From Candidatus Calescibacterium sp. (lineage in GTDB: Bacteria; Calescibacteriota; Calescibacteriia; Calescibacteriales; Calescibacteriaceae): DNA of 64,000 nucleotides. Position 1 is the stretch's first letter; each line of letters opens with the position of its first letter. The position numbers and the translations under genes were made by a program. Location of the stretch: NCBI GenBank assembly GCA_032249135.1, contig JAVVGL010000006.1, forward strand, positions 19,792-83,791. Reading direction: 5' to 3'. The notes beneath the pieces were generated by a model that was not told the origin of the DNA, did no database searches, and saw nothing but the letters and a program-made list of their open reading frames with translations. Below, piece after piece: positions 4,064 through 49,852 of the stretch.

Positions 4064-4537
4064 ATGAACAAGGTAATAATACCAGAGGGGGTTAAGGCAA
4101 AAAATGTTGAAAGGCAACCGGGAATAATTGAAAAAATATACGCAAGCATAGTGGGTGGATTTGGAGTAACTTCAAAACACATCTTTGAGAAGAAAGTCAC
4201 ATTAAGATACCCGGAGGAGAGAAAAGAGCTCCCAAAAGATTACAGGGGAAGACATTACCTTGATATAGAAAAATGTGTAGCTTGTGAATTCTGTGCATCA
4301 GCTTGTCCGGTAGATATAATATTCATAGTAGGTGAACCTCATCCAGAAAAAGTCCGACACCCGAGAGTTTTTAATATAGACATTCTCAAATGCATATTCT
4401 GTGGATACTGTGTTGAAGCATGTCCAACAGGAGCGTTGCAGATGTTGGATGTATATGAAGTTTATTCTCCTGAAAGATTTATTCTCACCATAGATGAACT
4501 TACGAAGAAACCAGAATTTTTTGAAGAAAAAGCGTAA
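4064..4537 (+). CDS. nuoI: NADH-quinone oxidoreductase subunit I-like 2x[4Fe-4S] ferredoxin
   Basis: The N-terminal block TLRYPEERKELPKDYRGRHYL is typical of NuoI. There are two CxxCxxCxxxCP motifs (CVACEFCASACP, CIFCGYCVEACP). No other nuo genes are nearby. Confidence 0.8.
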   Translation: MNKVIIPEGVKAKNVERQPGIIEKIYASIVGGFGVTSKHIFEKKVTLRYPEERKELPKDYRGRHYLDIEKCVACEFCASACPVDIIFIVGEPHPEKVRHPRVFNIDILKCIFCGYCVEACPTGALQMLDVYEVYSPERFILTIDELTKKPEFFEEKA

Positions 4538-4576
4538 GCAAAAATTTTAGATTTTATTTCTTTTCTTTCAATAAAT

Positions 4577-5959: not shown

Positions 5960-5974
5960 GTTTATTTATCTTTT

Positions 5975-7027: not shown

Positions 7028-7100
7028 AAAAAGTAATATAAATTAAAAAAGAAGGAAAGGTTAAAGAAAAATACAGAAAAATCTAACTTTACCTTAAAAA

Positions 7101-9119
7101 TTAGTTTTTTCTTTTTTCTCTCCTTTTTACTATCAGAAATATCAAATATAAGATCAGATTAAAGTATGTTCCGATTATGGAGAGTAAATTTACATTATAA
7201 GATGAGCAGGAGCATCCGAATTCACCGGATGCTCCGAATTTGTCCTGAGGTTTGTTTCCCAAGGTAGTTTCTGGATTTTGGACCTTGACAACCCAATTTC
7301 TTATCTCCTGAGAAATGCAATTAGATGCCCGAATAGAAAATCTGTAAATGCCTTCAGATGGAGGGGTTTTCCATATGATCTCTGCATATCCTTCATATGT
7401 GCTAATAGATTTTGCTTTTCCGCCATCGGAAAAATTAGCTCCATCGGGTTCTATTATTTCCAGAAAAATAGGAGGGGTGCCATTAATGTATATAGTTGCT
7501 TTATATTCACTTGATGGGGGTGCAAAATCATATTTTTCAGCATCCTTTATATTTGGGCTTCTCAGAACTACTTCTTGAGAGATTGGAGTTGCTCCCACAT
7601 TTATTCTATCAGGAAATTTCTCAAAAACAGCAATAATGACATCATGAGGCTTGCCTTCGTAGCCATAAGCCGCTGTTGCAGAATCTGGGAATACATCCCC
7701 TGATTTCCAGAAATCATTTGGTTGGCTTTCTAAACATTTTACAGATTCATTCTCTTTATTTATATCAATTTTTTCAAACCTCCAAACATCAGAATAAGTT
7801 CCTGTATTTTCATTATATTTGAAAGGCAAAACAACTTTCACTCCGTAATGCCTTGAACATGTAATAAAGTTTCCTTTGCTATCTTTTACTTCACCGCATG
7901 AATTTCCACATCCGGGGAAACATTCATAGACATTTACAGAGTTTGAACTAATACCGGAATTTACTATGTTTTCATCAATATGCCATATGAGGACTCCTTC
8001 GGAGGGAAAATCAGAATCAAATAGTTCTTTTTTTCTGAACTCAATAAGAAAATATTCGGTTTGAGAGGTTCCGCCATAAGCTGGAATTTTTAAAAAGAAT
8101 TGAGAGTTTGAGCTTGAAGAAATTGCATCACAGAAATCGTAAGTTACAAGTTTTGGAAAAGCCCAACCCAGATAAATTTTCTCCCACGGGGAAAGATTTG
8201 CCGGCAAAGTTCCAAAAGGAGTCCCTTTATACAAACCATATCCCATAAGGGAGTAAGGTCCGACACCACAAGATTGAATTCCGCCTTGTGAGTATCCGGC
8301 ATCGTATAGATCCGGTAGCCCGAGAAGATGACCAAACTCATGAGCCATAAGTCCCATATTGCCTTTTGGGAAAAACTGAGATATACCTGCTGCAATGACT
8401 CCGCCTTTTATAATTTTTCTCTCCTGCGTTGTAATATAAGTATAAAAAGCGTGAGACCAAATATCACAACACTTTGGATCATCATATGAATAAGGCAGAG
8501 TTTCAGCTCCTTGACCAGAATGTATAATAATGAAGCAGTCTACGATACCATCTGAATTTCCGTCAAATTTTGAGAAATCTATATCTTGGTCTGTGATTTG
8601 GACGAGCTCCCGCGCGAGATTTTGAGTCCCATTTCCCATACCACAATACCGAAAGCTTCCGTTTTTTGTTCCGCAAGCATAATCTGAAAGATTTGAGGAA
8701 ACCGTATAAGGTCCAAAAACTTCTCCGCTTATTTTTAATTTTCCTTGGGAGTTTATAAGCCAGAAATCTCTAAATGAAGGGAATTTGTAGATGGTGTTAG
8801 AAGTTATTGAGCCAACCATAAGCTCAGAAAAATATGATTTCGGGTCTGCGGAAACTCCGTATTTTGACAAATCAAATTTTTTATCTTGGAACTCTACTAA
8901 AATGATAGCACATCTGACATTACCCTCCCGTGGTGCTACTTGTTTTGGAGTTATGAAAGCCTCTGGAGATATTCTCATCAGAGATTTTGATGATTTGAAA
9001 CCAAGCCTTGTTGGCGTCCAAACTCCAGGGTATGGTGGAGCAGATAGAACATCAACTTGAAGCGATGGGAAAAATGATAATAATAAAAAAAGTGAAACCA
9101 TAAAGAAAAAAAGTAGCAT
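7101..9119 (-). CDS. Secreted M6-family (InhA-like) zinc metalloprotease with C-terminal membrane-anchor signal
   Basis: It has an N-terminal signal peptide and the signature HEFGHLLGLPDLYD (HExxH plus GLPDxY, typical of the M6 domain). A C-terminal Ig-like segment is followed by GEFGCSCSS, a TM helix and KRREKRKN. Confidence 0.8.
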   Translation of the reverse strand: MLLFFFMVSLFLLLSFFPSLQVDVLSAPPYPGVWTPTRLGFKSSKSLMRISPEAFITPKQVAPREGNVRCAIILVEFQDKKFDLSKYGVSADPKSYFSELMVGSITSNTIYKFPSFRDFWLINSQGKLKISGEVFGPYTVSSNLSDYACGTKNGSFRYCGMGNGTQNLARELVQITDQDIDFSKFDGNSDGIVDCFIIIHSGQGAETLPYSYDDPKCCDIWSHAFYTYITTQERKIIKGGVIAAGISQFFPKGNMGLMAHEFGHLLGLPDLYDAGYSQGGIQSCGVGPYSLMGYGLYKGTPFGTLPANLSPWEKIYLGWAFPKLVTYDFCDAISSSSNSQFFLKIPAYGGTSQTEYFLIEFRKKELFDSDFPSEGVLIWHIDENIVNSGISSNSVNVYECFPGCGNSCGEVKDSKGNFITCSRHYGVKVVLPFKYNENTGTYSDVWRFEKIDINKENESVKCLESQPNDFWKSGDVFPDSATAAYGYEGKPHDVIIAVFEKFPDRINVGATPISQEVVLRSPNIKDAEKYDFAPPSSEYKATIYINGTPPIFLEIIEPDGANFSDGGKAKSISTYEGYAEIIWKTPPSEGIYRFSIRASNCISQEIRNWVVKVQNPETTLGNKPQDKFGASGEFGCSCSSYNVNLLSIIGTYFNLILYLIFLIVKRREKRKN
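7104..7226 (-). other. C-terminal tripartite sorting-signal-like segment (GEFGCS motif, TM helix, polybasic tail)
   Basis: The translated tail is GEFGCSCSSYNVNLLSIIGTYFNLILYLIFLIVKRREKRKN*. The same architecture and Cys motif occur at the C-terminus of the 1982-aa protein. Confidence 0.6.
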
Positions 9120-9186
9120 AAAAATTATCTTAACAAATTAAATCAAAGAAAGTATTTTTTTGAAAAAGTATTTTTTTGGAAAAGAT

Positions 9187-10638: not shown

Positions 10639-10706
10639 TTTTTCTTCACATCTTTATCTTTATTTTTCCTTATTTTTCCTTTCCCATTTCATTTTTCTTC
10701 TTTTAT

Positions 10707-11105
10707 TCATTCTTCTTCTTTTATTTTTATTTGTTTTGCATCTATCCAGAGACCTTCTATATCGTAGAATTTTCGCGCCTCATCTTCAAAGATATGCAAT
10801 ACTATATCTCCTGTATCAACTATGTTCCAGGGTGATTGAGGGTTGAAATCAGAGAACAGAATAGAAATTCCGATTTTATCTGCTTTTTCTTCTATCTCAT
10901 CTATTATGGCTTTTCTGTGAGTACTGCTATCTGCTGTGCATATTATAAAAAAATCAGCTATGTGCTCAAAATTTTGCAAATCTATTACTACAACATCTCT
11001 TGCCTTCTTTGATAAAATCAAATCAACTATTCTCCTTACTTTCTCATCAATTACATCACCTGGCAACCTCTCTCTCAATTTGGAAAATTTCTTTTTATCC
11101 ATCAA
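10707..11105 (-). CDS. rsfS: Ribosomal silencing factor RsfS (iojap family)
   Basis: The size is about 130 aa. The blocks KKARDVVVIDL, ADFFIICTADSSTHRKAI and WNIVDTGDIVLHIF match the RsfS/DUF143 pattern. Confidence 0.85.
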   Translation of the reverse strand: MMDKKKFSKLRERLPGDVIDEKVRRIVDLILSKKARDVVVIDLQNFEHIADFFIICTADSSTHRKAIIDEIEEKADKIGISILFSDFNPQSPWNIVDTGDIVLHIFEDEARKFYDIEGLWIDAKQIKIKEEE

Positions 11106-11211
11106 ACAAAAAATCCAGAGCCTACAAAAATATCTTAAAGATAATTTTATAATTTATAATAGGAGAATAATTTTTGTAGCAAAAAAATTCTGAAAACGAA
11201 AGCTAGAAAAA

Positions 11212-31192: not shown

Positions 31193-31294
31193 TTTGCAAC
31201 TTATATTTTAATTTTGTAATGTAAAGAGAATTTTTTATTTCCGTTTATTTTTTAAATTTTTTGTAGCTATATTTTTTATAGCAGGTGAGAAAAT

Positions 31295-31927
31295 ATGCGG
31301 AAATCGTTATCAGAAGAAGCTACTGAGGTTTTAGAAAGTAAGCTCGGTAAGGCGGAGGCGAAAGCTTTTGTGAGAGCTGTTGATGAAGTAATATCACAAA
31401 TTACTGAAATCAAATGGAAAACAACAAAAGATGAGCTCCTTAGTGCAATAAGAGAAGAATTCATAAATAAAAATGTCTTTGAAGAAAGAACATTAGCAAT
31501 ACAGCAAAGTATTAACTCATCAAAGTTAGAGCTTAATGCAAGGATAGACGGGGTTAATGCAAAGGTAGACGGAGTCAAAATGGAGCTTAATGCAAGGATA
31601 GAAGGGGTAAGAGCAGAGCTTACTGAAAAGATAGACGGAGTTAAGATGGAGCTTAATGCAAGGATAGATGGGGTTAATGTAAAGGTAGATAGTATCAAGG
31701 CAGAGCTTGATGCGAAGATAGAAGGAGTCAGAGCAGAGCTTACTGAAAAGATAGAAGGAGTTAAGACGGAGCTCAGTGCAAAAATAGATAAAGTAAAGTC
31801 AGACCTTGAAAGACAAATACAAAAAACTGATATGAAGCTTAATTTCCTTATTGTATTGACTATTATTGCCATTACTCTTATGAACCCAGTTGTAGCTGAA
31901 ATCATAAAATCACTTCTCAAATTTTGA
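31295..31927 (+). CDS. Tail-anchored coiled-coil repeat protein (DUF1640-like)
   Basis: An AGGTGAG Shine-Dalgarno sits 6 nt upstream. The composition is K/E-rich and consistent with the genome. An array of 11/7-residue repeats is followed by a single C-terminal TM segment (LNFLIVLTIIAITLM). Confidence 0.7.
   Translation: MRKSLSEEATEVLESKLGKAEAKAFVRAVDEVISQITEIKWKTTKDELLSAIREEFINKNVFEERTLAIQQSINSSKLELNARIDGVNAKVDGVKMELNARIEGVRAELTEKIDGVKMELNARIDGVNVKVDSIKAELDAKIEGVRAELTEKIEGVKTELSAKIDKVKSDLERQIQKTDMKLNFLIVLTIIAITLMNPVVAEIIKSLLKF
31529..31801 (+). repeat. In-frame tandem repeat array (33-nt and 21-nt units) encoding hendecad/heptad coiled-coil repeats
   Basis: The units read ELNARIDGVNA KVDGVKM ELNARIEGVRA ELTEKIDGVKM ELNARIDGVNV KVDSIKA ELDAKIEGVRA ELTEKIEGVKT ELSAKIDKVKS. 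The corresponding DNA units are clearly similar (gagcttaatgcaaggatagaNgggg...). Confidence 0.85.
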
Positions 31928-31984
31928 TGACATAATTTTTTCAAATAATTAGAAGGTTCTGAAAACTTGCTCTAAATTAAAAAT

Positions 31985-32809: not shown

Positions 32810-32878
32810 TAAAATCTTGTTTTTTCTTCCCAAAATGATTATTATATATAAAAATTGCTAAATTTTTTTGTAAAAGGT

Positions 32879-35800
32879 ATGACAGAACAAAAAAAATTGG
32901 GAGCAATTTTACTCAATATTTTCATCGTCTTATCTTTACCACTGATAATAAAAGGGGAAGAAATAAAAAGAGGAGACACTGATAACCAATATGAAACAAA
33001 AGGAGAGAACACCTATGACCAATATGACGAACAAAGAATAATGCGCGAATTAGAGCTTTTACCTATACTATCTCTTGAAAGAACAAGGAGAGAAACGGGA
33101 AGAGCGGGAAGAATGTATATTGGGTTTGCTGATGAAGTTTTCAGAGGTAGAATTATTCCGAAAGTTGTTCCAAAAACCGCAACGCTCGCAATTGATGGCA
33201 TAGGCTGCGGAATATCAACCGGAAATATCATCGGTCCTTCCTCAACTTGGGGTCAATCATTCCAAGCAAGGTGGGGATATGAAGTACTGAATGTTGGTTG
33301 TCCAAACGACGATGCCGGTTGGTGTGACGATAAAGACTGGCCAGCACCATCTGCTTGTGTTGATGCTAACAGAGATTATATTTGCGACTGCGGATGGGGC
33401 GGATGCGTTGGAGGTTGTGATGATATAAACGCTCCGGACTGTGGATATAGAGAAAGGTTAGGGGATATGACGGGAGAATTTGAAGGGCTTTTACAATATG
33501 TAGCCGAACGACTAAAAGAAGCTCTCGTTCAGCGAGATTTGAGAATACTTGTAAATAAATCTCTTTGTGGAAAAGGTAGTTGTGTAGATACACCGTGGCC
33601 ACTTGACCACCTCTGCCTCACAGTAAATCAAGACCCAACAGATAATGCTAATATCAGGGAGAGATGTTGGGCACCGAGTAAGCCTTTGGACCCCTGGGTT
33701 GTATACTACAACAAAACTTTTGTTGAGGTATTTCCAAATCCCGGTAAAGGAACAATTGATGTTATTTTACTTTTGTGGGCAGAAGGAGGTGTTCCAGGGG
33801 ACCCTCAAGGTATCCCTGTGAGTAATAGAAGTAATGGCAACACAAATCCATCAAGTGATGTTTGTGTTGAGTTGAGGTTGTGTGGAGATTCAAGTGGTGG
33901 TGGTGCTTTCTATGCCGATGCCATAGCTATAAAAGCCTCTCTTTATCTTGTGGTTCAAGATAACTTAGTAGATGTCTGTGTAAAAGATACTGAACTTGAT
34001 ATTATAAATTCTCATGTTTACCTTGAAGGTTGTGTTGCTGGGTGTTTCTGCGATGCCAATCCAGAAAGCCCGCCTTTGGGTAATCAGAGTTTATCGGATG
34101 AAGGATTAGAGGAGACACTTGGGGCCTCAATTGCTCCTGGAATTGATAATTTCCTTCACGGAAACTGCCCAGGTGATAGAGCCTTATCTTTGTGCCCAAA
34201 AGTTGCTTTCAGAGGTTGGGGTTACCGGGGACCCTGTGCCCCATCAATAGGGTGTAGTTTTGATGCAACAACTGGTGAGATGTCTTGTACTTGTCAGGTC
34301 TGCCCTGAAAATAATAGCTATGGACCTTGCCCCCCTGGTTCTGTGCAGTGCACTCACGGAATTTTTCCTATTGATTTAAATGAGCTTTTGGGAGGGAGAA
34401 GCTTTTCTGTTACGCAATATTGTGGGAGACCTCAACATTTTGCTGGTGAGAATGCCGCGCACCTTGACCCTCTCAAATGTTGGCCAGGACACTACAAAGC
34501 AGGCGACCCAACTCCACCTCCTCCTTTTAACAACCCTCTTACATGGTATGGGACTATGAGCTGTGGTAAGGGGATATATGATATTGGTTGTTATATGTCA
34601 AAACCTCCTATTTTGACTGGAACCGGTTGTTCTGCTCAGATTGATGCGGCAATAAGACCTCGTGATTTGTCTCAGTCTTGCTCTGAGATGAGTTTTGACG
34701 GCTATCCTGCATCTCCTACCTTTTCGGGGACATCTGGTTTTGTTGTAAGAGCCGCATTTGATGCTGATAACTACACGCCTGAACCTCTTCTTTTTCCTCA
34801 GTCGGTCCCAGCGGCTGGTACAAACTGCAATATTCAGGGAGATGGAGTAGATGATGACAATGGCTACTGTTCTGTTTCAATTCCTTTTACTTTTAATTTT
34901 TACTTTGGCTCATACACTTCTATGTGTATTTCTACTAATGGTTTTGTAAGATTTGGCGCGGCAGGTGCAGATTGTGGAGACGCAACTCCCGACCCCATCC
35001 CGTATACTAATACTCCTAATGCGTGGGCTGGACCGATGTGGGCAGACCTTTCCATAGAGAACGAGTATCTCTACTATGTCTCAGAAGTTGTTCCAGCAAC
35101 TTGGATAGATGCTTACTCTTGTAGAATCATGGGAGCTATGGATGTTGGGGCGAGCGCGGGCGACCCGTTAGATGATACATTAGTTGGAAATGTAAATTCT
35201 GCTTGCGCCGGCTCAAATATCTGTGGCGTCTCATCCCTTTGCAACGATGAACATTCTGAACCATCCTACACAACATACAACGACTGTTCATATAACCAAT
35301 CCATAGGATGGAGTTTTCCATTTTTTGGTTCAAATTTCTCAAATGTATGCATAAGTTCTAATGGTATAATATATTTTAGGAACGATGGAATATGTCCAGC
35401 AGGTGCTTTGAATATACCAACTTCACCAGCAGCCGGGGGACCTAACTACTCAATAGCAGTCGTATGGAAAGACCTTGACCCCCTCACAATGACCTCAGAT
35501 GAAGATTGCAGCGGGTGTGCAAGTTGTTCTTTTCTTTGCACCGGGCATGATAGGCACAGAGGGGAGTTTAATGGCTTTGGTTCGGTCTACAAGCATTACA
35601 TATCTGGCACATGCCCAACTTCCGGTGGTTCGTGTTCCGCTTTGGTTATAACATGGTATAGGGTTGTAGATTTTAATGTCCAACCAAATAATGCAGATAA
35701 CTGCTCTGATAATAACGATTCAAATGCAGATTGTACAAACTACGCAGCTGGAAGAGATTGGTGTGAAGTCAGGGAAGGAAGTAACCTCTATGACTGCGGT

Positions 35801-38800
35801 TGTAATCCAGATTGTGGCGCATATGGTGGTTGCAACGCCACAGACGACAGCAACTGTAGGAGAATTTGCAGGTGTTGTATTCAGGGTTGTCAGGATCAGG
35901 CGAGGGCTGGGCAACCGAATGAATGGGAAGCTTATAAGCGGCAGGTTCAAAACACAAACACATTTCAGGTCGTCTTGTGGCAAGATGGAACAATTGATAT
36001 AAATGTAAAGGAATTTACAGATACCGCCGGAAGCTGTAATGGAACAACGCCACGCGCTCGTATGTTTTTGAAACAAAATTCATCAAGATATATTGAGTTA
36101 AGCATAGCACCGAATAAGTCTTATAGAATCTTCCCCCTGGGTTATGCAAACACAGTTTGTGGTACCGGGCGAGTAATATATGGTTCTGGAACTTGCACAA
36201 GAACAACCGGTTCAGGAACTGCAAACTGTGTCAGAGTCAGATGGGAAAATGTCCATGTGAAAGGGCAAGGCATATGCATAACTATGGAGGCAAGAATTAT
36301 GCAAGATTACACGGGGACGGGAGCGGGAGCAGGTTCAAACTACGATATTGTGTTTTTCATGGAAAGATTTGAGGTTCCGATAGCTTCACTATCTCCGGAG
36401 CAAAGGAAACAGCTGGCAAGACTATCAGACTTTACAAGGAGCCCCGGTGTGGAAAACGCTGCCGGTGATGTGGGAGCTTATGCTTATATACCTCCTGATG
36501 GGAATGGTTTGGTTATGAGGTGGCAAGGTCCGTGGACATACTGGATTGGTGTGGGTATATCACAAGATTTGATGACTGACGCATCAAACATGCTATACTC
36601 TGGGGTGATGTGTCTTTCTGCAAATGTGGGCGGAGTTAATACTGCAGATACCCAAAAATACTACGATATTTTTACTACAATTTTACCGTTTAACTTATCA
36701 TCAGCCGATTCTGCAAAAACACTATTTCCATTTATCACGAATTATTGCGATCCGGATGGTCAGGTTGAGTTGAGGATGAAACCATCTGGTGTGACGCAAG
36801 CGAGCGCAAGAACAGGCTTGCAAATCCCATCTGTTTTAATTGCAGGCTCTACCCTTGATACATTCCCTTATGAGGGAGCGCTCGGAATTTCTGTTCCACA
36901 AACATGCACCGAGTGGGGGTTTTCACGATGTGCAGATGTCGTCTTCTCTTTCCCGAATTTCAAAGCGGAAATTTGGTGCCACAAAAACAACCTCCCAACC
37001 TTTGCGTGGATAAAAGACGGTATAACAGGTCCTCCAACCTATGTTTTGGGAATAACATCAGATTGGTTTATCGGAGCCGATATAGAATACGCTTACATAT
37101 CAACGGGAATTTCTATGCAGGCAAAATTGCAGGATGCGTCAGGAGGAAATGAATATGTCTATGTGAAAATAGCCGATGTCTCCTGTGCAATAGCTTCGGG
37201 AGATATACTTGAATATTGGATAAGGGTTGACCCAGCTACAAGACGCTGCGCCCTTGATGCATATTTCTCGGGGGGAGGCGTTCTGAGAAATGTACCAGGA
37301 CTTACCGACCAGAACGGAATACCTGCTCACCCTGATGGTAATTTGCAGACTTTCTGTCCTGACCCTAACTGCACAAAGACTGCACCAAACACAAGTTGTA
37401 GGTGCCCCGTACAAGATTGGTATAGGAGAAGAATATCGCTTTCTAGTTTTGCTGGGCAAACTTTGCAGGAGCTTGCAATAGGTGTTGAGGAAGATGCAAA
37501 CGGTGGATATTCTTGCCAAATAATGGGTATTAAGGTTTTAAATAGTTCCGGTGGAGTAAAATGCTCTTTTTCTGGTCTAAGAGATATGGGAATATGGGCT
37601 CGAGGAGGGATAAGCAGCATGCAACGATATTCTTACTCTGTTGCTGGGAACACCATAGGAGATATATTTATTTTTGCAGATGTGAAACCGAACCCAAGAC
37701 AGATTCAATCTTCTGTTTTGCTACCAAGTCAAATTATAGGAGGAATCGCAGACATTTTCGGAGATATTCTCTCTGGTTGGTTGCAAGGCAGAATAAGAAC
37801 AAAATTCAATATACCTTTGGAAATAAACATGCCTTTGCATTTTGTTTTCAAAAAAGTCAAACCACAAGGACCTGATATTCAAACAGATGAGACTAACTTT
37901 AACCCATGGCTAAGTTATGGTTATCCTCCCGGAAATATAGCTCCTGATTACTTGGTTATTTACATAGATAGATTTTTGGGGAATATAGATGTTGTATCTT
38001 TGATGATGGGTGGTCTTTCTTTGGCTCCACCCGCACCTTATCGTAGGTCTCAAGTTTCAACATCTGAACTTATATCTTTTGATATTCCAGAGTGTTCCGG
38101 GAAAGGTGAAAAATGCGTTCTGACTCCTGATGTTGCTAAAAAATATTTCACAAATTTTGGTCCAAATAATGTGAATTTGAGATTTGGAGGAGGTGTTATA
38201 AAATACTCGTGGAGGAAAAATGGGAGTATGTGGAAGCTTCCAAATTCTGCCGCACAAAGCACACTTGATATAGGTACCTTGCTTGAAGGACCAAACATAA
38301 TAGAGATAGCTCCAATATTAGATGATGGGTACTTTTACGATGAAAATCCAGTTATTTTGGCTATATATATGGATACCCAACCACCTTATGTTAGTTTGAG
38401 AGGAGGGAGGGAGCTTGAAACAGGTATTATGTATTTTTCCGGTGTTCCAGTGTTTGTTTTAGAATACTATGATATGAGCGGTGAGGTTTTCTGGTCTTAT
38501 AAGATAGATGATGGTGAGTGGTCAGAATGGATAAAAGGAGGAGTTGATAATAACGGTAGCGGAACAGGTAGAATAAAAGCAGATGTGAGCAAAGGCACAC
38601 ATGTTCTTTACCTGAAATTGAAAGATAAATGGGGTAATGAAACATCAATTTCTAAACCATTTTATTTCGCAAAGGAGGGAGTTTTTGGATGCTCATCGCT
38701 GAGCGAAGTTGAAGTCCAAGAGATTGTATGGAAGGGAATTTCTTTTGCTATTTTCTTCTTCCCAGTTTTAGTCGTAGTTCTTATGGTAAAAAGGAACGGT

Positions 38801-38827
38801 AAAAAAACGGTAAAAAGAAAGAAATGA
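32879..38827 (+). CDS. Giant Cys-rich secreted surface protein 1 (~1982 aa) with NIDO-like modules, two C-terminal Y_Y_Y/Ig-like domains and a Cys-motif/TM/polybasic C-terminal signal
   Basis: It is a single uninterrupted ORF. The signal peptide is MTEQKKLGAILLNIFIVLSLPLIIKGEE (the ORF track uses TTG 32855). I hand-counted about 84 Cys. Details are given in the findings. Confidence 0.85.
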   Translation: MTEQKKLGAILLNIFIVLSLPLIIKGEEIKRGDTDNQYETKGENTYDQYDEQRIMRELELLPILSLERTRRETGRAGRMYIGFADEVFRGRIIPKVVPKTATLAIDGIGCGISTGNIIGPSSTWGQSFQARWGYEVLNVGCPNDDAGWCDDKDWPAPSACVDANRDYICDCGWGGCVGGCDDINAPDCGYRERLGDMTGEFEGLLQYVAERLKEALVQRDLRILVNKSLCGKGSCVDTPWPLDHLCLTVNQDPTDNANIRERCWAPSKPLDPWVVYYNKTFVEVFPNPGKGTIDVILLLWAEGGVPGDPQGIPVSNRSNGNTNPSSDVCVELRLCGDSSGGGAFYADAIAIKASLYLVVQDNLVDVCVKDTELDIINSHVYLEGCVAGCFCDANPESPPLGNQSLSDEGLEETLGASIAPGIDNFLHGNCPGDRALSLCPKVAFRGWGYRGPCAPSIGCSFDATTGEMSCTCQVCPENNSYGPCPPGSVQCTHGIFPIDLNELLGGRSFSVTQYCGRPQHFAGENAAHLDPLKCWPGHYKAGDPTPPPPFNNPLTWYGTMSCGKGIYDIGCYMSKPPILTGTGCSAQIDAAIRPRDLSQSCSEMSFDGYPASPTFSGTSGFVVRAAFDADNYTPEPLLFPQSVPAAGTNCNIQGDGVDDDNGYCSVSIPFTFNFYFGSYTSMCISTNGFVRFGAAGADCGDATPDPIPYTNTPNAWAGPMWADLSIENEYLYYVSEVVPATWIDAYSCRIMGAMDVGASAGDPLDDTLVGNVNSACAGSNICGVSSLCNDEHSEPSYTTYNDCSYNQSIGWSFPFFGSNFSNVCISSNGIIYFRNDGICPAGALNIPTSPAAGGPNYSIAVVWKDLDPLTMTSDEDCSGCASCSFLCTGHDRHRGEFNGFGSVYKHYISGTCPTSGGSCSALVITWYRVVDFNVQPNNADNCSDNNDSNADCTNYAAGRDWCEVREGSNLYDCGCNPDCGAYGGCNATDDSNCRRICRCCIQGCQDQARAGQPNEWEAYKRQVQNTNTFQVVLWQDGTIDINVKEFTDTAGSCNGTTPRARMFLKQNSSRYIELSIAPNKSYRIFPLGYANTVCGTGRVIYGSGTCTRTTGSGTANCVRVRWENVHVKGQGICITMEARIMQDYTGTGAGAGSNYDIVFFMERFEVPIASLSPEQRKQLARLSDFTRSPGVENAAGDVGAYAYIPPDGNGLVMRWQGPWTYWIGVGISQDLMTDASNMLYSGVMCLSANVGGVNTADTQKYYDIFTTILPFNLSSADSAKTLFPFITNYCDPDGQVELRMKPSGVTQASARTGLQIPSVLIAGSTLDTFPYEGALGISVPQTCTEWGFSRCADVVFSFPNFKAEIWCHKNNLPTFAWIKDGITGPPTYVLGITSDWFIGADIEYAYISTGISMQAKLQDASGGNEYVYVKIADVSCAIASGDILEYWIRVDPATRRCALDAYFSGGGVLRNVPGLTDQNGIPAHPDGNLQTFCPDPNCTKTAPNTSCRCPVQDWYRRRISLSSFAGQTLQELAIGVEEDANGGYSCQIMGIKVLNSSGGVKCSFSGLRDMGIWARGGISSMQRYSYSVAGNTIGDIFIFADVKPNPRQIQSSVLLPSQIIGGIADIFGDILSGWLQGRIRTKFNIPLEINMPLHFVFKKVKPQGPDIQTDETNFNPWLSYGYPPGNIAPDYLVIYIDRFLGNIDVVSLMMGGLSLAPPAPYRRSQVSTSELISFDIPECSGKGEKCVLTPDVAKKYFTNFGPNNVNLRFGGGVIKYSWRKNGSMWKLPNSAAQSTLDIGTLLEGPNIIEIAPILDDGYFYDENPVILAIYMDTQPPYVSLRGGRELETGIMYFSGVPVFVLEYYDMSGEVFWSYKIDDGEWSEWIKGGVDNNGSGTGRIKADVSKGTHVLYLKLKDKWGNETSISKPFYFAKEGVFGCSSLSEVEVQEIVWKGISFAIFFFPVLVVVLMVKRNGKKTVKRKK
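38678..38824 (+). other. C-terminal tripartite sorting-signal-like segment (GVFGCS motif, TM helix, polybasic tail)
   Basis: The tail reads GVFGCSSLSEVEVQEIVWKGISFAIFFFPVLVVVLMVKRNGKKTVKRKK*. The Cys codon is at 38690-38692. Confidence 0.6.
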
Positions 38828-42755: not shown

Positions 42756-43436
42756 ATGAATTTTGTTTTATATGAGTCAGCGATTTGTGTTTTGATTTCA
42801 GCTTTCGGTCTTGCTTCAACAAGGTTCAAGTTTTTGGAGCTCAAACACTATGTTTTTATTGTTTTTATATCTGCTCTTTTGGTTCTTACAAGATACTTTT
42901 TCTCAAAACAAGAGAGCAGAATAAGGCTTTTGTCTCTTCCATCATCTCTTTTGCTGATTTTTCTTTCTTTGCCATCTCCGAAGCTTTTTTTAATTTCATT
43001 TGTTGCGCTTTACATTTTTTCAATTGAGATATTTTCTCCTTTTGAGTTTGGAAAAAAAATTCCTTTCTTGATAAAACCTGTTATTTTTGTAGTTTTTTAT
43101 TTTTTGGGGTTTTACTATGTTGCAAATCCATTTTCTTTTGCAACTTATGATGCTCTTTATTATGCTCTTTTGATTGCAATTTTCGGCTTATTTTTTTCAC
43201 TATCACAAAAACATTTTGCTTTCGGATTCCCGGCAGTTTTGACTTTTCCCATCTTCCACTCATCTTTACCTGTTATAGCACTATCTGGACTTACTCTTTT
43301 ATCTTTATTTTTTATGAGAAAAGAGAAAAAGAACTTTTTGCCCTCTGTTTTATCTTTGTTTTTTCTCGTCTTTTTTATCTTGTACCTTTATGATGCACAA
43401 AGTATGCTCCCAGCAGGAGCTATATATATTTTTTAA
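42756..43436 (+). CDS. Uncharacterised polytopic membrane protein (~226 aa)
   Basis: It has about 7 hydrophobic helices and lies immediately upstream of the tandem Lgt-like genes on the same strand. The start is uncertain (ATG 42756, or TTG 42729 in the ORF track). Confidence 0.6.
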   Translation: MNFVLYESAICVLISAFGLASTRFKFLELKHYVFIVFISALLVLTRYFFSKQESRIRLLSLPSSLLLIFLSLPSPKLFLISFVALYIFSIEIFSPFEFGKKIPFLIKPVIFVVFYFLGFYYVANPFSFATYDALYYALLIAIFGLFFSLSQKHFAFGFPAVLTFPIFHSSLPVIALSGLTLLSLFFMRKEKKNFLPSVLSLFFLVFFILYLYDAQSMLPAGAIYIF

Positions 43437-43482
43437 TTGATATATATTTTTTGATTGATTTGATTTTTTTGCTAACTAATAT

Positions 43483-44193
43483 ATGTTGCCGCTTATACAT
43501 TTGGGGTATGGAATATACATTCCTATATATCCTATTGCAACTGCTATTTCAATATCTTTGGTAGCTTACCTTATTTTAAGGGAGGATGATAGATTTGCAG
43601 TTGAACTTGGGTTCTTTATTGTGTCTTTTATTTTATCTTCAAGAATTTTTTTGGGAAAGAAAATTCTGAATTTTTGGGAGAGCGGATATTCTCTCATGAC
43701 GGGGGTAAGTATATCTTTCCCCCTCACACTTATTTTTCTTCTTATAAGAAAAAAAGATTTTTTATATTTTTTTGACCTGTGCTCAAAATATGCTCCGGTG
43801 GGACTTGCCACACACAGAATATTCGGATGTTTCCTTGCAGGATGCTGTTGGGGAGTTCCAAGCTCTTTTGGTCTTGTGCCTCATCCTTGGTCACTTGCAT
43901 TCAAATATACTGGATACCAAAAACTTTTCCCAGTCCAGATTTTTGAAGGTTTGTGGTGGGTGATTTCTTTTTTCCTTGTGAATAAATCAAAAGACAAAAC
44001 ATTAACTTTTCTCCTTTGCCTTTTTATATCAAGACTATTTGAATATCTGAGGGGAGATATTGACCTTTTTTTCTACATAGGTAGAATAAAAGTTTCATTT
44101 TATCAGATTTTGGCAGCTTTTTTACTCTTATCTACCGCAGCAGTAAAATTTTTATTGAGTAAGAGAAAAGAAAAAAATAAAGGGAAAAATTAA
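43483..44193 (+). CDS. Prolipoprotein diacylglyceryl transferase (Lgt)-family paralog 1, divergent
   Basis: It is polytopic. WESGYS (compare W-x-G-G of Lgt), HRIFGCFLAGCCWGVPS (compare GR-x-GCF-x-NGCC-x-G of many Lgt) and FEYLRGD (compare the F-x-R-x-D C-terminal block) are present. At 236 aa it is shorter than typical Lgt. Confidence 0.6.
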   Translation: MLPLIHLGYGIYIPIYPIATAISISLVAYLILREDDRFAVELGFFIVSFILSSRIFLGKKILNFWESGYSLMTGVSISFPLTLIFLLIRKKDFLYFFDLCSKYAPVGLATHRIFGCFLAGCCWGVPSSFGLVPHPWSLAFKYTGYQKLFPVQIFEGLWWVISFFLVNKSKDKTLTFLLCLFISRLFEYLRGDIDLFFYIGRIKVSFYQILAAFLLLSTAAVKFLLSKRKEKNKGKN

Positions 44194-44210
44194 AGAAAAG
44201 AAAGAAAAAA

Positions 44211-44966
44211 ATGTTTCCTGTTTTGTTTCAAGTTGAAAACTTCAAATTTTATACTTCGTTTCTCACTTTACCTTTGGTATCTTTGGTTTTCATTATTTTT
44301 AGCTGGAAAAGACTGAAAGAAATAGGATATAAAGATACTGAGATAGGTCAAATTATGATTTTGATATTTGTTTCGTGGGCTGTTTTCTCACGCTTATATC
44401 TTATAGGTAAAATACCTTTCTTGCAACTTATTTCTGTTTGGGAAGGGGGACACTCTATGATACTGGGAATAATTGGACCGATGATTATAACGCTTGTATA
44501 TTTGCTTTTGAGAAAGAAAACAATTTCTGATTTTTTTGATGCTATGGTACCTACCATAGCTTTATCGTTGGCTCTGTATAGAATTTTTGTTTGTTTTCTT
44601 GTGGGTTGTTGTTTTGGTAAGCCTTTCAGGTTTGGTTTGGTGTTTCACGAAAATTCGGCTGCCTATCTTTATTTTGGTTCAAAGCCCATTCACATCACAC
44701 AAATTTATGAGGCTTTCTTTATGGGATTAACTTTCTTTTTACTTGAGAAAATCAAATTCAAAGAAAAGGGAGATAAAACCTTGTTTTTTCTTTTCATGCT
44801 ATCTTTAATGAGGCTTGTAGTAGATAATTTCAGAGGAGATATAAAAGAGTTTATGATAAAGTTTGAGATTTTTGAGTTGCAGGGAATAACTTTATGGCAG
44901 GTCTTATCTATTTTTCTTTTTTTGTGCGGGGTTTTTTGGTTAAGAGTTCTCAAGATAAGAACATAA
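44211..44966 (+). CDS. Prolipoprotein diacylglyceryl transferase (Lgt)-family paralog 2, divergent
   Basis: VWEGGHSMILGIIG, YRIFVCFLVGCCFGKPFRFGLVF and VDNFRGD are present. It is collinear with paralog 1 over its whole length. Confidence 0.65.
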   Translation: MFPVLFQVENFKFYTSFLTLPLVSLVFIIFSWKRLKEIGYKDTEIGQIMILIFVSWAVFSRLYLIGKIPFLQLISVWEGGHSMILGIIGPMIITLVYLLLRKKTISDFFDAMVPTIALSLALYRIFVCFLVGCCFGKPFRFGLVFHENSAAYLYFGSKPIHITQIYEAFFMGLTFFLLEKIKFKEKGDKTLFFLFMLSLMRLVVDNFRGDIKEFMIKFEIFELQGITLWQVLSIFLFLCGVFWLRVLKIRT

Positions 44967-45820: not shown

Positions 45821-48800
45821 ATGGCAAAGCATATAATAAAAAGTTTGTTTGGTGAGAGAAAAAGTAAAAAAGTTGAGCTTTTTGCTTCTTTCTTATTTAC
45901 TTCTTTCTTCTCGTTGTTGTTGCTGATATTATTTCCTCAAAAGAAATCTTTTGCTACACCTTTACCCGTTACAACATTTCCCTCTTATCTGCAAAACTCG
46001 GTTGTTTTAAGATTAACAGGGTGTTTAAATCAGTGGCTGCAACAAAATTTCAACTACCTTTTTGTAGATGATGGTGTCTCAGGTTCAGGAGATGAGCTAT
46101 GTCCTGCTGGGCAATATCAAGGAACTCTTGGTTCTTTCTCCACTGTTTCTGTTCCGTGTGGATGGAAGACTTTGAACATGCTAAATGCTCTGATTATGGA
46201 TTTACTTGACAAACAGAAGAAAATTCAAGGCTTAACTCCGCCTGCTGATGATGACCCAGTTATGTGCTGTTGCGATCCTACAAAAGACTCAGAAAACTGC
46301 ACAGGACCTGCTACTCCCGGTTGTCCCTCTCAGTTTCCTAATAGAGGAAAATGCATGGCTTTAAAACCGGAAGCTACAAATTACTTTGTAGTTAATTTCC
46401 TTGACACCTCAGTTACTCCTAATATTATCCGAGGTTATCAGGCATGGGGTGTAACATGGGTTGGAGCTCCGGGTTCAACAACAGCTTATTGGTCAGGGCT
46501 TTTAGACCAGTGTCTCCCTATACCTCTGCTGGGTAATTTGTGTCTGAATTTATCTTTAAACGATGTCTGCAATGCCACAACATGTGGTCCCATCTTAAAT
46601 TACAACGGAACTACGCATCCAGGTAACTGTTGGTACACTCGTACATCGGGAGGGGATCCCGCTAATAACTGTGATGATGATACAACAAACGGATATCGAA
46701 GCGCAAACCGGGATAACTGGATTTTAAGATATAACCCTGTTGGTGGTGTCTCTCTAAATTTCTCTGTCGGTGAGAGCGTTGGTGTTTCATGTGGTATGGG
46801 TGGGGCTCCTTACAGCTATAACGGTAAAATTTTTACGGGAAATGAAGGGTTTATTACTATTGAGCTGTTTTTAAATCCTATTTCTATAGATATAGATGCT
46901 GCAACTCCATCTGCAGGAAATAGAATAACATTTACTGCTTCTTCCCCTCCACCACTTGCTACTAATGTTGCTCCTGGGAGAACAGATTGTAATGATTCTC
47001 AGGCGAACCAGCAAGGTGATTGCTATGTTAGAGCTTATCTTCGTGCAAGAGGAGCTTTGAAACTCAAAGTTGGTGCAACTTTATATTTGGAACACAGAAC
47101 CGGCTCTTGGCCGCACCTACAAGATGTTGGAATAGCCGTAAGAGAAATCAACTTTTCAGAAGCTCCCTGGATATCTCTTGCGTTGGATTGGACCTGGTCT
47201 GAACAAAGCCCGAACTGCACAGCAACAAGTACTCTTTGTGTCAGAAAAAATATAACTGTGAAAGCGATGAAAACTATTGAATTTATAGATGTTGTTTTGA
47301 GAGGTCTTTTCAGATTTGCTTACATTCCCTCGGGGCTTCAACAATATTTTGGTCCGGTTGTTTTTGATATAAGTGGTCTTACACAGATGAAAACCTCTTA
47401 CTTTTTCCCAACCTGGGTCAGACCAATTACAACAGATGATTTACTTATAGATATAGCCCTGGGTGGAGACCCGTATTTGGGAACACAAGTCCTGCGGTCT
47501 AAATCTTGTTTTGCAAGCAACGGAGTGGGTCCTGGAACCAACCGAAATGAGCTTTATCTTATAGGTTCTGCTATGATAGACCTTGACCTTTTCAGGAGAG
47601 GAACAGATTGGAAAAATACAACGCAGTGGTATGATCACAGAATTACTTCTTGCGGATATGTTCCACCTCCTTATGGCAACCATCCAGCCCCTTCTATGAT
47701 TGCAGGTCCTTCTTCGTTTTTCCAGCTCCCGCACGCAGGTTCAAGAGATTCACTTTCTCTTACCTCATGTGAAGCTAATGGGACATTTGTTGGTCTTTCA
47801 ATTTTCCAGAATGTCTTTACATATTTGGTTTCCGATATTGCAACATCTGGTTTAATGTGCCTTGCAATATCTCAAAAAGGAGAGGGATTTGCGTCAGGAC
47901 TTCCTTTGCCTATTTGGACAGTTGGACAAATGAAGCTTATGATTCCTGACCTTTATAACTTCCTTGAATCAGAGTTCGGCTCTAATGTAACAGATATGCC
48001 TATGATTTTTGTATTCAAACCGAAACCATACGCAGCTTATCCCGGATTCCCTCAAACACCACAAGCTTCGTTTGCAAATGATTTGCCTCCAAATACTGTT
48101 GACCCACTCCCAATAACTGCTGATGTACTACTTACACTACCAAATAACGATTTTGAAATTTGGGTTGATGTTGATAACGAACTTGAACAGTGGGGACTTG
48201 GACCAGGGGAAGTAGGGGGAACTTGTACTTATGGTCTAACTCCATCTCCGGTAGGTTGGTGTACTGCTTTCCCTACTGGAACAACTCCTCCGGCTCAAGG
48301 AACAATAGATGTGGGTCCAGTTGGAAATGCATTTCGTAATAACTTTCCAGATTGCGTCTCTTTTATTGATTGTGATTCAACAGTAGGAAATCCATCTGAT
48401 AGGGTAAGGGAAAGAAGGTTTATAGCTCAGTTTAATGTTGGGGTAACTTTGGCTTTGGATTTGAATTTCCTTGGCTGCGGAAGAGGAACATATAAAGTTT
48501 TTGGGAACCTGGCAGCTTACGGTTTCCCATCTACACTCGCAGGTGGTGGATGGTATAACCCTTGGAACCCAGCAACAACCGGAAACTGCACAACCGTAAG
48601 CCACCTGAGGAGAGTAGATTTGACTTTGGGGATGATTTCTCGTGTTGGATCAGTTGATGTTACAAACGATTCAGGAACCGTAAAAGTTTATTATCCGTTT
48701 TCTAATAATACATTTGCTGGTTATCTTGCAGATTTTATAGCTGTTATACTTTCTGGTGCTTTGGCTCTTGACGCTCAGCTCGGATATACACTCTCTGCAA

Positions 48801-49852
48801 TTTTAGACCCAGACGACAACTTATACAGCGCAACGCCTGCAAACAATAATGTTGTTCGTATAGGAGGACACGCAAGAGGTCAAGGAGCTGATAGACTTAT
48901 TCACACATATATCGCAAGAGACGATGTGGGGAACAGTGACTCAGATCCATCAGGTTATCCACAACAGTTTCTCACAATTGCAATTGATTTTCAGGGGTTT
49001 ATTCATCCTAACTTCTTTTATGGGGTTATATCTCAGCTTTTGAGTGGTTCTACTAATATATTTGGTTCTGCTCCAAGATTTGTTGCTGATGGGAATGGTG
49101 AGGTTAATCTTGAATCTTTGAACCCGCTTGTTGAAGTTTGGCAGAAAATAAGCAACGGAGGAGAGTATTTCATAAGTTTCAGAGATATTCAGGAGTTTGT
49201 GAAGAAAATAGAAAAGTCTGGACTTATTGTTCCTATGAAAAAGAATGAAAATGGCGGAATAGATGATTTCCCACCAGAAACTGTGGTAGAATATGTTCAA
49301 GCTTCTCAACCCAAAACTATAATAAAGCTCTCGTGTGTTGATGATTATACAAAGCCAGATAACTGTTGGTTTGGATGGAGATGGAAAGGCAAGATGTGGC
49401 AGCCCTGGATTCAATCTAATACAATTGAAATAAGAGGACTTCCGGATGGCGAGTATGAAATTGAAGTGAGAGCCCTTGATGAAAGAGCTATTCCTGATAT
49501 TACCCCTGTAACCGTAAAATTCGTGGTAGATGATACTCCACCATCTATTTTCTTCCCGAAAAAAGCTTTCTTCAAAAGAGGAGATGTTTTGCGAGTTGAA
49601 CTTTGGGACTACATAACAAAACCAGACGAGATAGAGGTCTCATACAAGATTGATAACTCTGATTGGTCAAGCTGGCAGAAAGTAGATTTCAACGATAAAG
49701 GTTTAGGTATAAAGCTTATAAGACTTCCTGATGAAGTTGGGACACACAAAGTTATAGTAAGAGCCAGAGACAAAAAAGGCAATATTGAAACCCGTGAATT
49801 TTACTTTGATATAGGAGTTCCGGCAAAGGGAATTTTCTCCTGCTCACAATAA
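45821..49852 (+). CDS. Giant Cys-rich secreted surface protein 2 (1343 aa), paralog of giant protein 1, ending at the Cys motif
   Basis: There is a strong SD (AAGGGGGT) and a signal peptide (...LLILFPQKKSFATP). It has a Cys-rich N-terminal third, a central block and two C-terminal Y_Y_Y/Ig-like domains collinear with giant 1. The protein ends ...AKGIFSCSQ*. Confidence 0.88.
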   Translation: MAKHIIKSLFGERKSKKVELFASFLFTSFFSLLLLILFPQKKSFATPLPVTTFPSYLQNSVVLRLTGCLNQWLQQNFNYLFVDDGVSGSGDELCPAGQYQGTLGSFSTVSVPCGWKTLNMLNALIMDLLDKQKKIQGLTPPADDDPVMCCCDPTKDSENCTGPATPGCPSQFPNRGKCMALKPEATNYFVVNFLDTSVTPNIIRGYQAWGVTWVGAPGSTTAYWSGLLDQCLPIPLLGNLCLNLSLNDVCNATTCGPILNYNGTTHPGNCWYTRTSGGDPANNCDDDTTNGYRSANRDNWILRYNPVGGVSLNFSVGESVGVSCGMGGAPYSYNGKIFTGNEGFITIELFLNPISIDIDAATPSAGNRITFTASSPPPLATNVAPGRTDCNDSQANQQGDCYVRAYLRARGALKLKVGATLYLEHRTGSWPHLQDVGIAVREINFSEAPWISLALDWTWSEQSPNCTATSTLCVRKNITVKAMKTIEFIDVVLRGLFRFAYIPSGLQQYFGPVVFDISGLTQMKTSYFFPTWVRPITTDDLLIDIALGGDPYLGTQVLRSKSCFASNGVGPGTNRNELYLIGSAMIDLDLFRRGTDWKNTTQWYDHRITSCGYVPPPYGNHPAPSMIAGPSSFFQLPHAGSRDSLSLTSCEANGTFVGLSIFQNVFTYLVSDIATSGLMCLAISQKGEGFASGLPLPIWTVGQMKLMIPDLYNFLESEFGSNVTDMPMIFVFKPKPYAAYPGFPQTPQASFANDLPPNTVDPLPITADVLLTLPNNDFEIWVDVDNELEQWGLGPGEVGGTCTYGLTPSPVGWCTAFPTGTTPPAQGTIDVGPVGNAFRNNFPDCVSFIDCDSTVGNPSDRVRERRFIAQFNVGVTLALDLNFLGCGRGTYKVFGNLAAYGFPSTLAGGGWYNPWNPATTGNCTTVSHLRRVDLTLGMISRVGSVDVTNDSGTVKVYYPFSNNTFAGYLADFIAVILSGALALDAQLGYTLSAILDPDDNLYSATPANNNVVRIGGHARGQGADRLIHTYIARDDVGNSDSDPSGYPQQFLTIAIDFQGFIHPNFFYGVISQLLSGSTNIFGSAPRFVADGNGEVNLESLNPLVEVWQKISNGGEYFISFRDIQEFVKKIEKSGLIVPMKKNENGGIDDFPPETVVEYVQASQPKTIIKLSCVDDYTKPDNCWFGWRWKGKMWQPWIQSNTIEIRGLPDGEYEIEVRALDERAIPDITPVTVKFVVDDTPPSIFFPKKAFFKRGDVLRVELWDYITKPDEIEVSYKIDNSDWSSWQKVDFNDKGLGIKLIRLPDEVGTHKVIVRARDKKGNIETREFYFDIGVPAKGIFSCSQ
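49829..49849 (+). other. C-terminal GIFSCSQ motif (Cys motif without following TM/basic tail)
   Basis: This is the last 7 codons before TAA at 49850-49852. Compare GVFGCSS (giant 1) and GEFGCSC (M6 protease). Confidence 0.5.

Follow-up and report, generated by a model that had tools for sequence, protein, structure and literature searches.

What is accomplished by a Cys motif, a membrane helix and a basic cluster at the extreme C-terminus of very large secreted proteins is the question raised by a 64,000-nucleotide stretch of a Candidatus Calescibacterium sp. genome (GenBank assembly GCA_032249135.1, contig JAVVGL010000006.1, positions 19,792 to 83,791; here termed the window; G+C content, 35.7%), representing a lineage known from Yellowstone streamer communities at approximately 80 degrees C (PMC4791363). 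Three proteins encoded in the window, namely, two very large proteins, giant 1 and giant 2, and a metalloprotease of the M6 family, terminate in versions of such a tail. Exported proteins of this lineage were found to bear a conserved, modular C-terminal signal centred on a Cys residue, and we consider it probable that the tail represents a Cys-containing sorting or anchoring signal specific to the lineage formed by Candidatus Calescibacterium and its relatives.

Conservation and modularity of the C-terminal tail

In its long form, the signal consists of a lipobox-like core, a spacer of 3 to 13 residues, a single membrane helix containing a helix-breaking residue, and a cluster of Lys and Arg (Table 1). 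The N-terminal signal peptides are ordinary, and those of giant 1, the M6 protease and giant 2 are devoid of a lipobox Cys. Translation of positions 32855 to 38827 returned exactly the giant 1 tail which the initial annotation had described, at the same position, and its readings of the M6 protease and giant 2 endings (the latter being GIFSCSQ followed by the stop codon) agreed equally well with the translations.

The orthologue of giant 1 in locus L002 (76% identity) retains GVFGCSS, a C-terminus which reads GVFGCSSMSEVEIQEVVWRGISFVIFFLPVFVIVFMISKSRKK..., and the basic cluster. Its counterpart in L003 (39 to 61% identity, with 61% over the C-terminus) carries GVMGCRS and the C-terminus GVMGCRSASEVEIQEVVFRVISVSATLVPIFVIVLMRIRNIRKKKKK... 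together with an acidic extension, and that of L090 (31 to 35% identity) carries EVMGCPV and the C-terminus EVMGCPVIGSVNQKDVSKMLATLNALIPVSVALFAVYILKFIRNGNGNGKK.... The window, L002 and L003 share the invariant spacer S-E-V-E-[VI]-Q-E-[IV]-V, in place of which L090 has another spacer of 13 residues; the Pro residue in mid-helix is invariant across all four tails of this family. Conserved residues within the helix have been described as a sign of an intramembrane protease in the CTERM class (bioRxiv 10.1101/2023.06.07.544157). The giant 1 C-terminus had no match in a scan of GTDB representative genomes.

Two further records concern this family. An NCBI protein of 144 amino acids (P0001), corresponding to window positions 38390 to 38827 or thereabouts, is 86% identical to the giant 1 C-terminus and passes into unrelated sequence immediately after GVFGCSSLSEV, which is consistent with a frameshift or an assembly error inside the tail of that record. 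At L003:6406-10047, the gene which follows Lgt is not giant 2 and instead encodes a second giant 1-like paralogue (39% identity over 1231 amino acids) that runs off the contig before its tail is reached.

The M6 protease carries the same type of ending, with 4 to 8 residues separating the Cys motif from the helix. Its orthologues at 78% identity (L010 to L015) all retain SG[VI]AGCSCSSY, the helix and the basic end, their tails reading SG[VI]AGCSCSSYVLEPFSL[IV]ATYF[GS]LISYLIISLFR[TL]K.... In a more distant genome, represented by L009, a 1907-residue protein with TIG, FG-GAP and MopE domains terminates in FNYGCSTSQKP, a helix and NKIINKKRKMISK before the stop codon (full tail, FNYGCSTSQKPIITLITSIILITMIINKIINKKRKMISK). 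The L009 protein has the same short tail as giant 1 and the M6 protease, with no other homology among the three. The tripartite C-terminal sorting architecture with an invariant Cys that had been read from the window thus held up on wider comparison, being modular and retained in orthologues down to 31 to 35% identity.

When all available tails were compared, the motif Cys was retained in 36 of 36 sequences (4 of the giant 1 family, 7 M6 proteases, the single L009 protein and 24 giant 2 proteins), representing four families with otherwise unrelated domains. Across these sequences, only the Cys and the G or S preceding it are invariant; position -2 is occupied by F, M, A, L or Y, position -3 mostly by V, I or T, and the residue after the Cys (position +2) mostly by S or G, with R, P, M and I also being observed. 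The motif F-[GS]-C-S proposed in the initial annotation is consequently correct with regard to its [GS]-C portion, whereas the flanking F and S vary among relatives.

To quantify specificity, stop-to-stop open reading frames (ORFs) of at least 100 amino acids were scanned with a strict pattern, defined as G-x-[FILMVA]-[GS]-C lying no more than 75 residues from the C-terminus, after which either the protein had to end within 6 residues or a 17-residue hydrophobic stretch and 3 or more Lys or Arg residues had to follow. In the control, 1.02 Mb of unrelated metagenomic loci (those of distant M6 homologues), none of the 1392 ORFs bore this pattern, whereas three occurrences were recorded in the window, these being exactly giant 1, the M6 protease and giant 2. 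The lineage loci were retrieved by homology to the carrier proteins themselves, and the unbiased figure is, for that reason, the control rate only. A relaxed pattern ([GS]-C near the end) was unspecific, its short form matching 13 of 768 control ORFs, and was not used as evidence.

The distant homologues of the M6 protease (n = 74; 23 to 35% identity) provide a further indication of function. Most of the complete ones end in a type IX secretion system (T9SS) type A C-terminal domain (...IKIAVVK and stop; TIGR04183 and NF052323), while others (L041 and L049/L054) possess a Thr-rich linker followed by GGCGS or GGCKS, a helix and an RKKK ending. Because lineages differ in the anchoring signal which they place at this one position, the location of the Calescibacterium tail on the M6 protease argues that it, too, probably serves to anchor the protein and is not an incidental helix.

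The latter M6-family proteins (L041:4267-11455, L049:9425-11935 and L054:3298-5808) are encoded by other organisms, with 47 to 50% G+C, and bear GGEGGCGS or GKGGCKS tails with RKKK or KKKK, one such tail being common to three tandem paralogues in L041. Their sole NCBIfam matches were subthreshold (PGF-CTERM, 17.6 bits against a cutoff of 24.5), and they may constitute a further unmodelled Cys-containing C-terminal signal.

A stable short form of the signal in giant 2

Giant 2 carries the motif in a form that lacks the helix. A protein search identified 27 relatives (99 to 47% identity), among which P0006, P0024, P0030 and P0032, all close, have Candidatus Calescibacterium as their NCBI source. 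Each of the 24 orthologues with a complete C-terminus, spanning the same range of identity, terminates 2 to 4 residues past the Cys without any helix, the endings within the family including GIFSCSQ, GIFSCSR, GVFSCSQK, GILSCSAGL, PIFSCMGE, SIFSCIAN, GVFGCGK, GIFGCGRI and KTFGCGGAK. Truncation of giant 2 by a nonsense mutation was ruled out, as read-through past position 49852 yields only AT-rich sequence and all 24 complete orthologues end alike. The gene downstream begins after 83 bp in the window and after as few as 10 bp in L009.

One genome thus contains two stable forms of the motif, only one of which has the helix and basic tail. As giant 2 retains the Cys core only, it is this core, and not the helix, which is the part common to every family. 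The initial annotation had supposed that the tail is removed; with a helix-free form that is conserved in 24 of 24 proteins and is not the remnant of a tail, removal cannot be the whole account.

Giants 1 and 2 show homology over their last ~170 residues, the alignment extending as far as the Cys (29% identity, E = 4e-16). In all 21 full-length giant 2 proteins, the number of Cys residues in the mature protein, counted after the predicted signal peptide cut between A and TP, is odd (33 in 19 proteins, 37 in one and 31 in one). This implies that Cys residues have been gained or lost in pairs and that one Cys lacks an intramolecular partner, for which the motif Cys would be the obvious candidate; for Cys-dependent cleavage and lipidation, this parity is the single indirect hint. 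The Cys core of giant 2 may either be modified without a helix, perhaps while docked on giant 1 via the shared C-terminal domain, or form a disulfide with a partner.

Table 1. Coordinates of the tail-bearing proteins, their C-terminal elements and neighbouring genes in the window.
Feature	Position	Strand	Details
Giant 1 ORF	32855..38827	+	1990 aa; stop codon 38825-38827; no Pfam domain
Giant 1 signature motif GVFGCSS	38678..38698	+	Cys codon 38690-38692; the Gly codon opens at 38678
Giant 1 acidic spacer LSEVEVQEIVWKG, from Cys motif to helix	38699..38737	+	Translation
Giant 1 hydrophobic transmembrane segment ISFAIFFFPVLVVVLMV, Pro in mid-helix	38738..38788	+	Translation
Giant 1 basic cluster KRNGKKTVKRKK and stop	38789..38827	+	Lys/Arg, 9 of 12 residues; Lys-rich
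M6 metalloprotease	7101..9119	-	672 aa; Pfam Peptidase_M6, 84 bits; TIGR03296, 167 bits
M6 protease tail: GEFGCSCSS, YNVN, LLSIIGTYFNLILYLIFLIV, KRREKRKN and stop (whole ending, GEFGCSCSSYNVNLLSIIGTYFNLILYLIFLIVKRREKRKN and stop)	7101..7226	-	Translation
Giant 2	45821..49852	+	1343 aa; ends GIFSCSQ and stop
Giant 2 short motif G-I-F-S-C-S-Q-stop, no helix	49829..49852	+	Translation
Orphan polytopic membrane protein, 428 aa	38883..40169	+	55 bp downstream of giant 1; no family match
Orphan polytopic membrane protein, ~226 aa	42756..43436	+	Directly upstream of LgtA/LgtB; no Pfam or NCBIfam match
LgtA, second Lgt-family paralogue (candidate only)	43483..44193	+	Pfam LGT, 55 bits, C-terminal two thirds only; TIGR00544, 30.1 bits
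LgtB, divergent Lgt-family protein (candidate Cys-lipidating enzyme)	44211..44966	+	Pfam LGT, 80.6 bits; NCBIfam lgt TIGR00544, 42.5 bits

Comparison with known sorting signals

Neither the full proteins nor the isolated tails of giant 1, the M6 protease and an M6 orthologue matched any NCBIfam CTERM model at E values of up to 10. In the same scan, the TraA peptide included as a positive control matched TIGR03901.2 (20.6 bits; cutoff, 20), and the T9SS domain of an M6 homologue was also recognized, which renders the negative result meaningful. Assignment of the tails to a known CTERM family is, therefore, rejected. The MYXO-CTERM likeness put forward in the initial annotation stands as regards architecture, but the tails match no TIGR03901 model and come from outside the Myxococcota; they are not MYXO-CTERM itself but most likely a variant of the known Cys-containing tripartite class to which current models are blind.

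The classes of Cys-containing CTERM signal are each tied to a CPBP (Rce1-like) intramembrane protease termed myxosortase (bioRxiv 10.1101/2023.06.07.544157), and cleavage of TraA by MrtX in a Cys-dependent manner has been demonstrated experimentally (PMC11980579). An acyltransferase, for which Lgt is the leading candidate, is presumed to lipidate the Cys before cleavage (PMC11980579), such that the model for the class proceeds from lipidation to cleavage to export through the T2SS (type II secretion system) (bioRxiv 10.1101/2023.06.07.544157; PMC11980579). The Calescibacterium tails in their long form resemble MYXO-CTERM in being tripartite, with an invariant Cys near the C-terminus of otherwise unrelated secreted proteins (giant 2 lacking the helix and basic part), in containing two Cys residues at times (GCSCSS in the M6 protease; often GCGC in MYXO-CTERM), and in the spacer between the Cys and the helix, which is also present in TraA, whose core GAFCCG resembles G-x-F-G-C. 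T2SS genes, namely, those for the ATPase (T2SSE) and a secretin, are likewise present in the window. In contrast, no tail reaches the 20-bit cutoff of TIGR03901.2, and MYXO-CTERM is restricted to the Myxococcota, where it has dozens of clients per genome. The basic cluster is Lys-rich here and Arg-rich there, the helix contains Pro or polar residues where that of MYXO-CTERM is free of Pro and charged residues, and a conserved helix-free form exists; no CPBP partner is apparent in the window or in ~200 kb of lineage loci.

The replacement of the tail by another sorting signal at the same place in homologues from elsewhere (T9SS, GGCGS or GGCKS in the M6 family) is a property shared with the Cys-containing CTERM class at large (Haft 2023). 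JDVT-, Synerg- and CGP-CTERM are also Cys-containing tripartite C-terminal signals with conserved residues inside the helix (Pro in Synerg-CTERM and DP in JDVT-CTERM), and CGP-CTERM occurs in hyperthermophiles; nevertheless, the present tails match none of these NCBIfam models, contain no DP or CGP motif and possess a spacer of 3 to 13 residues that is lacking in Synerg-CTERM and CGP-CTERM. JDVT-CTERM targets, furthermore, adjoin their CPBP protease, whereas the adjacent gene here encodes an orphan without CPBP motifs. PGF-CTERM/archaeosortase A and GlyGly-CTERM/rhombosortase are comparable in that a C-terminal helix and basic tail are removed in favour of a lipid anchor, and GlyGly-CTERM proteins reach the surface through the T2SS; however, these systems do not depend on Cys, and no PGF or GG signature is found in the Calescibacterium tails. 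Proteins encoded in the window yielded no Pfam or NCBIfam match to exosortase, archaeosortase or rhomboid families.

With respect to the eukaryotic CAAX box and Rce1 (CPBP family), the giant 2 Cys lies 2 to 4 residues from the C-terminus, and the Cys-CTERM class has Rce1 homologues as its proteases. The residues after the giant 2 Cys are, however, small or polar (mostly S, G, Q, R and K) and variable in number (CSQ, CGK and CSAGL), the CAAX pattern fitting only one of the 24 complete orthologues (CIAN). Giant 2 is, moreover, an exported and not a cytosolic protein, and the window contains no evident prenyltransferase. The 274-residue protein encoded upstream of giant 1 was considered as a prenyltransferase-like repeat protein and rejected, as it contains one QxxDGxF only and has no Pfam match.

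A resemblance to N-terminal lipoboxes had also been pointed out at the outset, and the core residues bear it out. The consensus [VIT]-[FAML]-[GS]-C-[SG] approximates the lipobox [LVI]-[ASTVI]-[GAS]-C in which S or G occupies +2, most tails fitting this core from -3 to +2 (VFGC, VAGC, IFSC and ILSC). The lipoboxes IISCG, LSFCG and FLSCG were confirmed in lipoprotein candidates of the window, and Lgt-family genes are located nearby. What does not carry over from the N-terminal pathway (Lgt, LspA and Lnt) is the context of the core, since the topology is mirrored, with no h-region before the Cys and a helix that either follows a spacer or is absent. An LspA-type cut before the Cys would, in addition, release rather than anchor the tailed protein.

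Proposed processing route and alternative explanations

By analogy with the MYXO-CTERM model, it is proposed that, following Sec-dependent export, the C-terminal helix would retain the protein in the inner membrane with its basic end in the cytoplasm. The Cys, situated at the outer face of the membrane, would then be lipidated, an Lgt-type diacylglyceryl transferase being the obvious candidate, and the helix would subsequently be removed by an intramembrane protease. The C-terminal lipid would keep the protein attached, with possible transfer to the cell surface via the type II system.

Cleavage and lipidation of the tails are steps which we infer, plausibly, from that analogy, and several observations weigh against the proposal. 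Neither the window nor ~200 kb of lineage loci yielded a gene for a CPBP, rhomboid or exosortase protein, a PF02517 match or the EExxxR/FxxxH/HxxxN pattern, and the tails are not matched by any NCBIfam CTERM model at the threshold given above. The core does not behave as a standard bacterial lipobox, with K, E or D occurring within 6 residues upstream, no preceding hydrophobic h-region, and a helix located on the opposite side of the Cys from the normal arrangement. Giant 2 has no helix with which to bring its Cys to the membrane, a situation for which the MYXO-CTERM model gives no account. The strong conservation of the giant 1 acidic spacer would be odd for a discarded propeptide; a further 20 to 35 polar residues follow the basic cluster in L003 and L090, which means that the tail does not invariably form the extreme C-terminus; and only 2 to 3 carriers were seen per ~60 kb.

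Some of these points are equally well accommodated if the tail is a permanent, uncleaved type I anchor of the inner membrane, in which the basic cluster acts as a stop-transfer sequence and the Cys motif is a membrane-adjacent structural element. The arrangement of helix and basic cluster conforms to the positive-inside rule, the loci searched yielded no processing enzyme, and both the conserved spacer and the residues beyond the basic cluster in L003 and L090 resemble mature protein rather than a leader. We nonetheless regard a permanent anchor as unlikely, as it leaves unexplained the recurrence of the Cys core on unrelated proteins and its survival without a helix in giant 2. M6 homologues elsewhere are displayed at the surface through a T9SS domain at that very position, Cys-rich, adhesin-like proteins of 1300 to 2100 residues would hardly function when confined to the periplasm, and a Pro in mid-helix is typical of the substrates of intramembrane proteases.

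It is quite unlikely that the motif is a true C-terminal lipobox, with an Lgt-family enzyme (either of the LgtB type or LgtA together with the 226-residue protein) that acts from the C-terminal side to attach diacylglycerol to the Cys of exported proteins. Were this so, giant 2 would demonstrate that no transmembrane helix is required, the reaction would constitute a periplasmic bacterial counterpart of CAAX processing, and the missing acyltransferase step of the entire Cys-CTERM/myxosortase class would have been identified.

An interchain disulfide, whereby giants 1 and 2 pair by their C-terminal Ig-like domains and the in-register Cys residues are bonded such that giant 2 is tethered via giant 1, appears improbable. 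It would make sense of the ~170-residue homology that extends up to the Cys, of the ever-present unpaired Cys of giant 2, and of the proximity of the two genes, which are neighbours in the window and have tsaB alone between them in L090. Yet the M6 protease and the L009 TIG/FG-GAP protein possess the motif without an Ig-like domain, no giant 1-like gene lies within 10 kb of giant 2 in L008 or L091, and the nearest tail-bearing protein in L009, some 8 kb upstream of giant 2, belongs to an unrelated family. Giant 1 has an even number of Cys residues (84), such that an external bond at C1938 would leave another Cys unpaired, and the lipobox-like residues ahead of the Cys would have no explanation.

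Neighbouring genes as candidate machinery

The interval between the giants contains, in order, genes for the 428-residue membrane protein, an 816-residue lipoprotein (on the opposite strand), the ~226-residue polytopic protein, LgtA and LgtB. No terminator-like site was found between giant 1 and the 428-residue gene, and their adjacency is maintained in L002 and L003 and lost in L090. The 226-residue protein is 64 to 71% identical in L002 and L003, has 2 representatives among 1.84 billion proteins and had no match in a scan of GTDB representative genomes. Identification of either orphan as a recognizable sorting peptidase received no support, with no Pfam or NCBIfam match at E values of up to 10 and no CPBP motifs, and single-sequence AlphaFold2 models were unusable (pLDDT [predicted local distance difference test] of 52.5 for the 226-residue protein and 48.4 for the 428-residue protein). 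An M50 site-2 protease is present. This protease family is known for cutting helices of the opposite orientation.

LgtA and LgtB are 35% identical to each other, and both exceed the PF01790 gathering cutoff (24.9 bits) while falling far below the Lgt equivalog cutoffs (TIGR00544, 118.9 bits; NF000778, 334 bits). The equivalents of the catalytic residues R143 and R239 of Escherichia coli Lgt, whose roles have been described (PMC4728403), are both invariant in the alignment, while N146 and E151 are replaced by Cys in LgtA, LgtB and the L003 Lgt and likewise in P0005. The latter, an Lgt encoded in an ileS-lspA-lgt context (Pfam, 193 bits), shares the signature R-x-F-x-C-F-x-x-G-C-C-x-G with LgtA and LgtB. 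LgtA is present in the window and L002 and absent from L003, in which the LgtB type is the only Lgt at the locus. The Lgt of L091, whose gene lies 2.6 kb away from giant 2, has diverged just as far (62.5 bits), which indicates that low scores characterize the lineage and that LgtB is probably an ordinary, housekeeping Lgt.

In L090, a relative at 65% identity, only tsaB separates the giants (positions 142 to 11256), and the five-gene block of the window is absent; the giants have the appearance of an ancient gene pair, with the block resembling an insertion or a deletion. There is also no Lgt within 10 kb of giant 2 in L008 and L009. The linkage of Lgt to the giants by gene neighbourhood is, therefore, weak and does not establish a dedicated system. 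That the operon of the 226-residue protein, LgtA and LgtB (42756-44966), perhaps with the 428-residue protein, forms a local machine which lipidates or processes the neighbouring giants is very improbable: the interval between the giants does contain a pair of divergent Lgt genes together with both orphan polytopic membrane proteins, the block is retained in L002 and L003 (without LgtA in the latter), an Lgt gene recurs near giant 2 in the distant L091, and Lgt is the candidate most favoured in the field for the missing acyltransferase (PMC11980579), but L090 has giant 1, tsaB and giant 2 without any of the block, L008 and L009 have no Lgt in the vicinity, L003 keeps the long tail without LgtA, the 226-residue protein has no relatives outside the close clade, unlike the motif-bearing giant 2, LgtB is probably an ordinary Lgt in view of its equally divergent L091 counterpart, and the Lgt signature is found in P0005 in the canonical ileS-lspA-lgt context.

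In L091 (2452-4815, minus strand), the Lgt gene is followed by genes for a 269-residue putative lipoprotein (lipobox FTLC) and a 277-residue orphan polytopic membrane protein, a pairing of Lgt and membrane protein which loosely resembles that of the window, without detectable sequence similarity.

Implications of a Cys-centred C-terminal signal

Cys-containing C-terminal signals have been defined only recently, and while the protease, myxosortase, is known, the enzyme that modifies the Cys is at present a matter of conjecture (Lgt; PMC11980579). If the tails do represent a sorting or anchoring signal, as we consider probable, the class would be extended to a deep-branching, hyperthermophilic phylum with a lipobox-like signature that current models miss. 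One genome would, moreover, offer a natural pair of substrates, one with helix and basic tail and the other with the Cys core alone, by which the role of the helix in modification of the Cys may be separated from its role in retention. For annotation purposes, the largest orphan proteins of Calescibacterium could be labelled as surface anchored.

Additional features of the window

The rplP gene, encoding ribosomal protein L16 (13071-13523, minus strand), stands alone between genes for a TPR lipoprotein and an outer membrane protein, away from any S10-type ribosomal protein operon, and the same arrangement is present in L015. A 210-residue protein (31295-31927, plus strand) consists of ELNARIDGVNAKVDGVKM-like repeats with a weak Apolipoprotein-type Pfam match and a C-terminal hydrophobic segment; the 222-residue ORF which overlies its gene on the minus strand (31276-31944) is probably spurious. 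Finally, positions 60134 to 62815 encode an 893-residue putative lipoprotein (lipobox FLSCG), for which Pfam matches indicate RCC1/WD40-like beta-propeller repeats.

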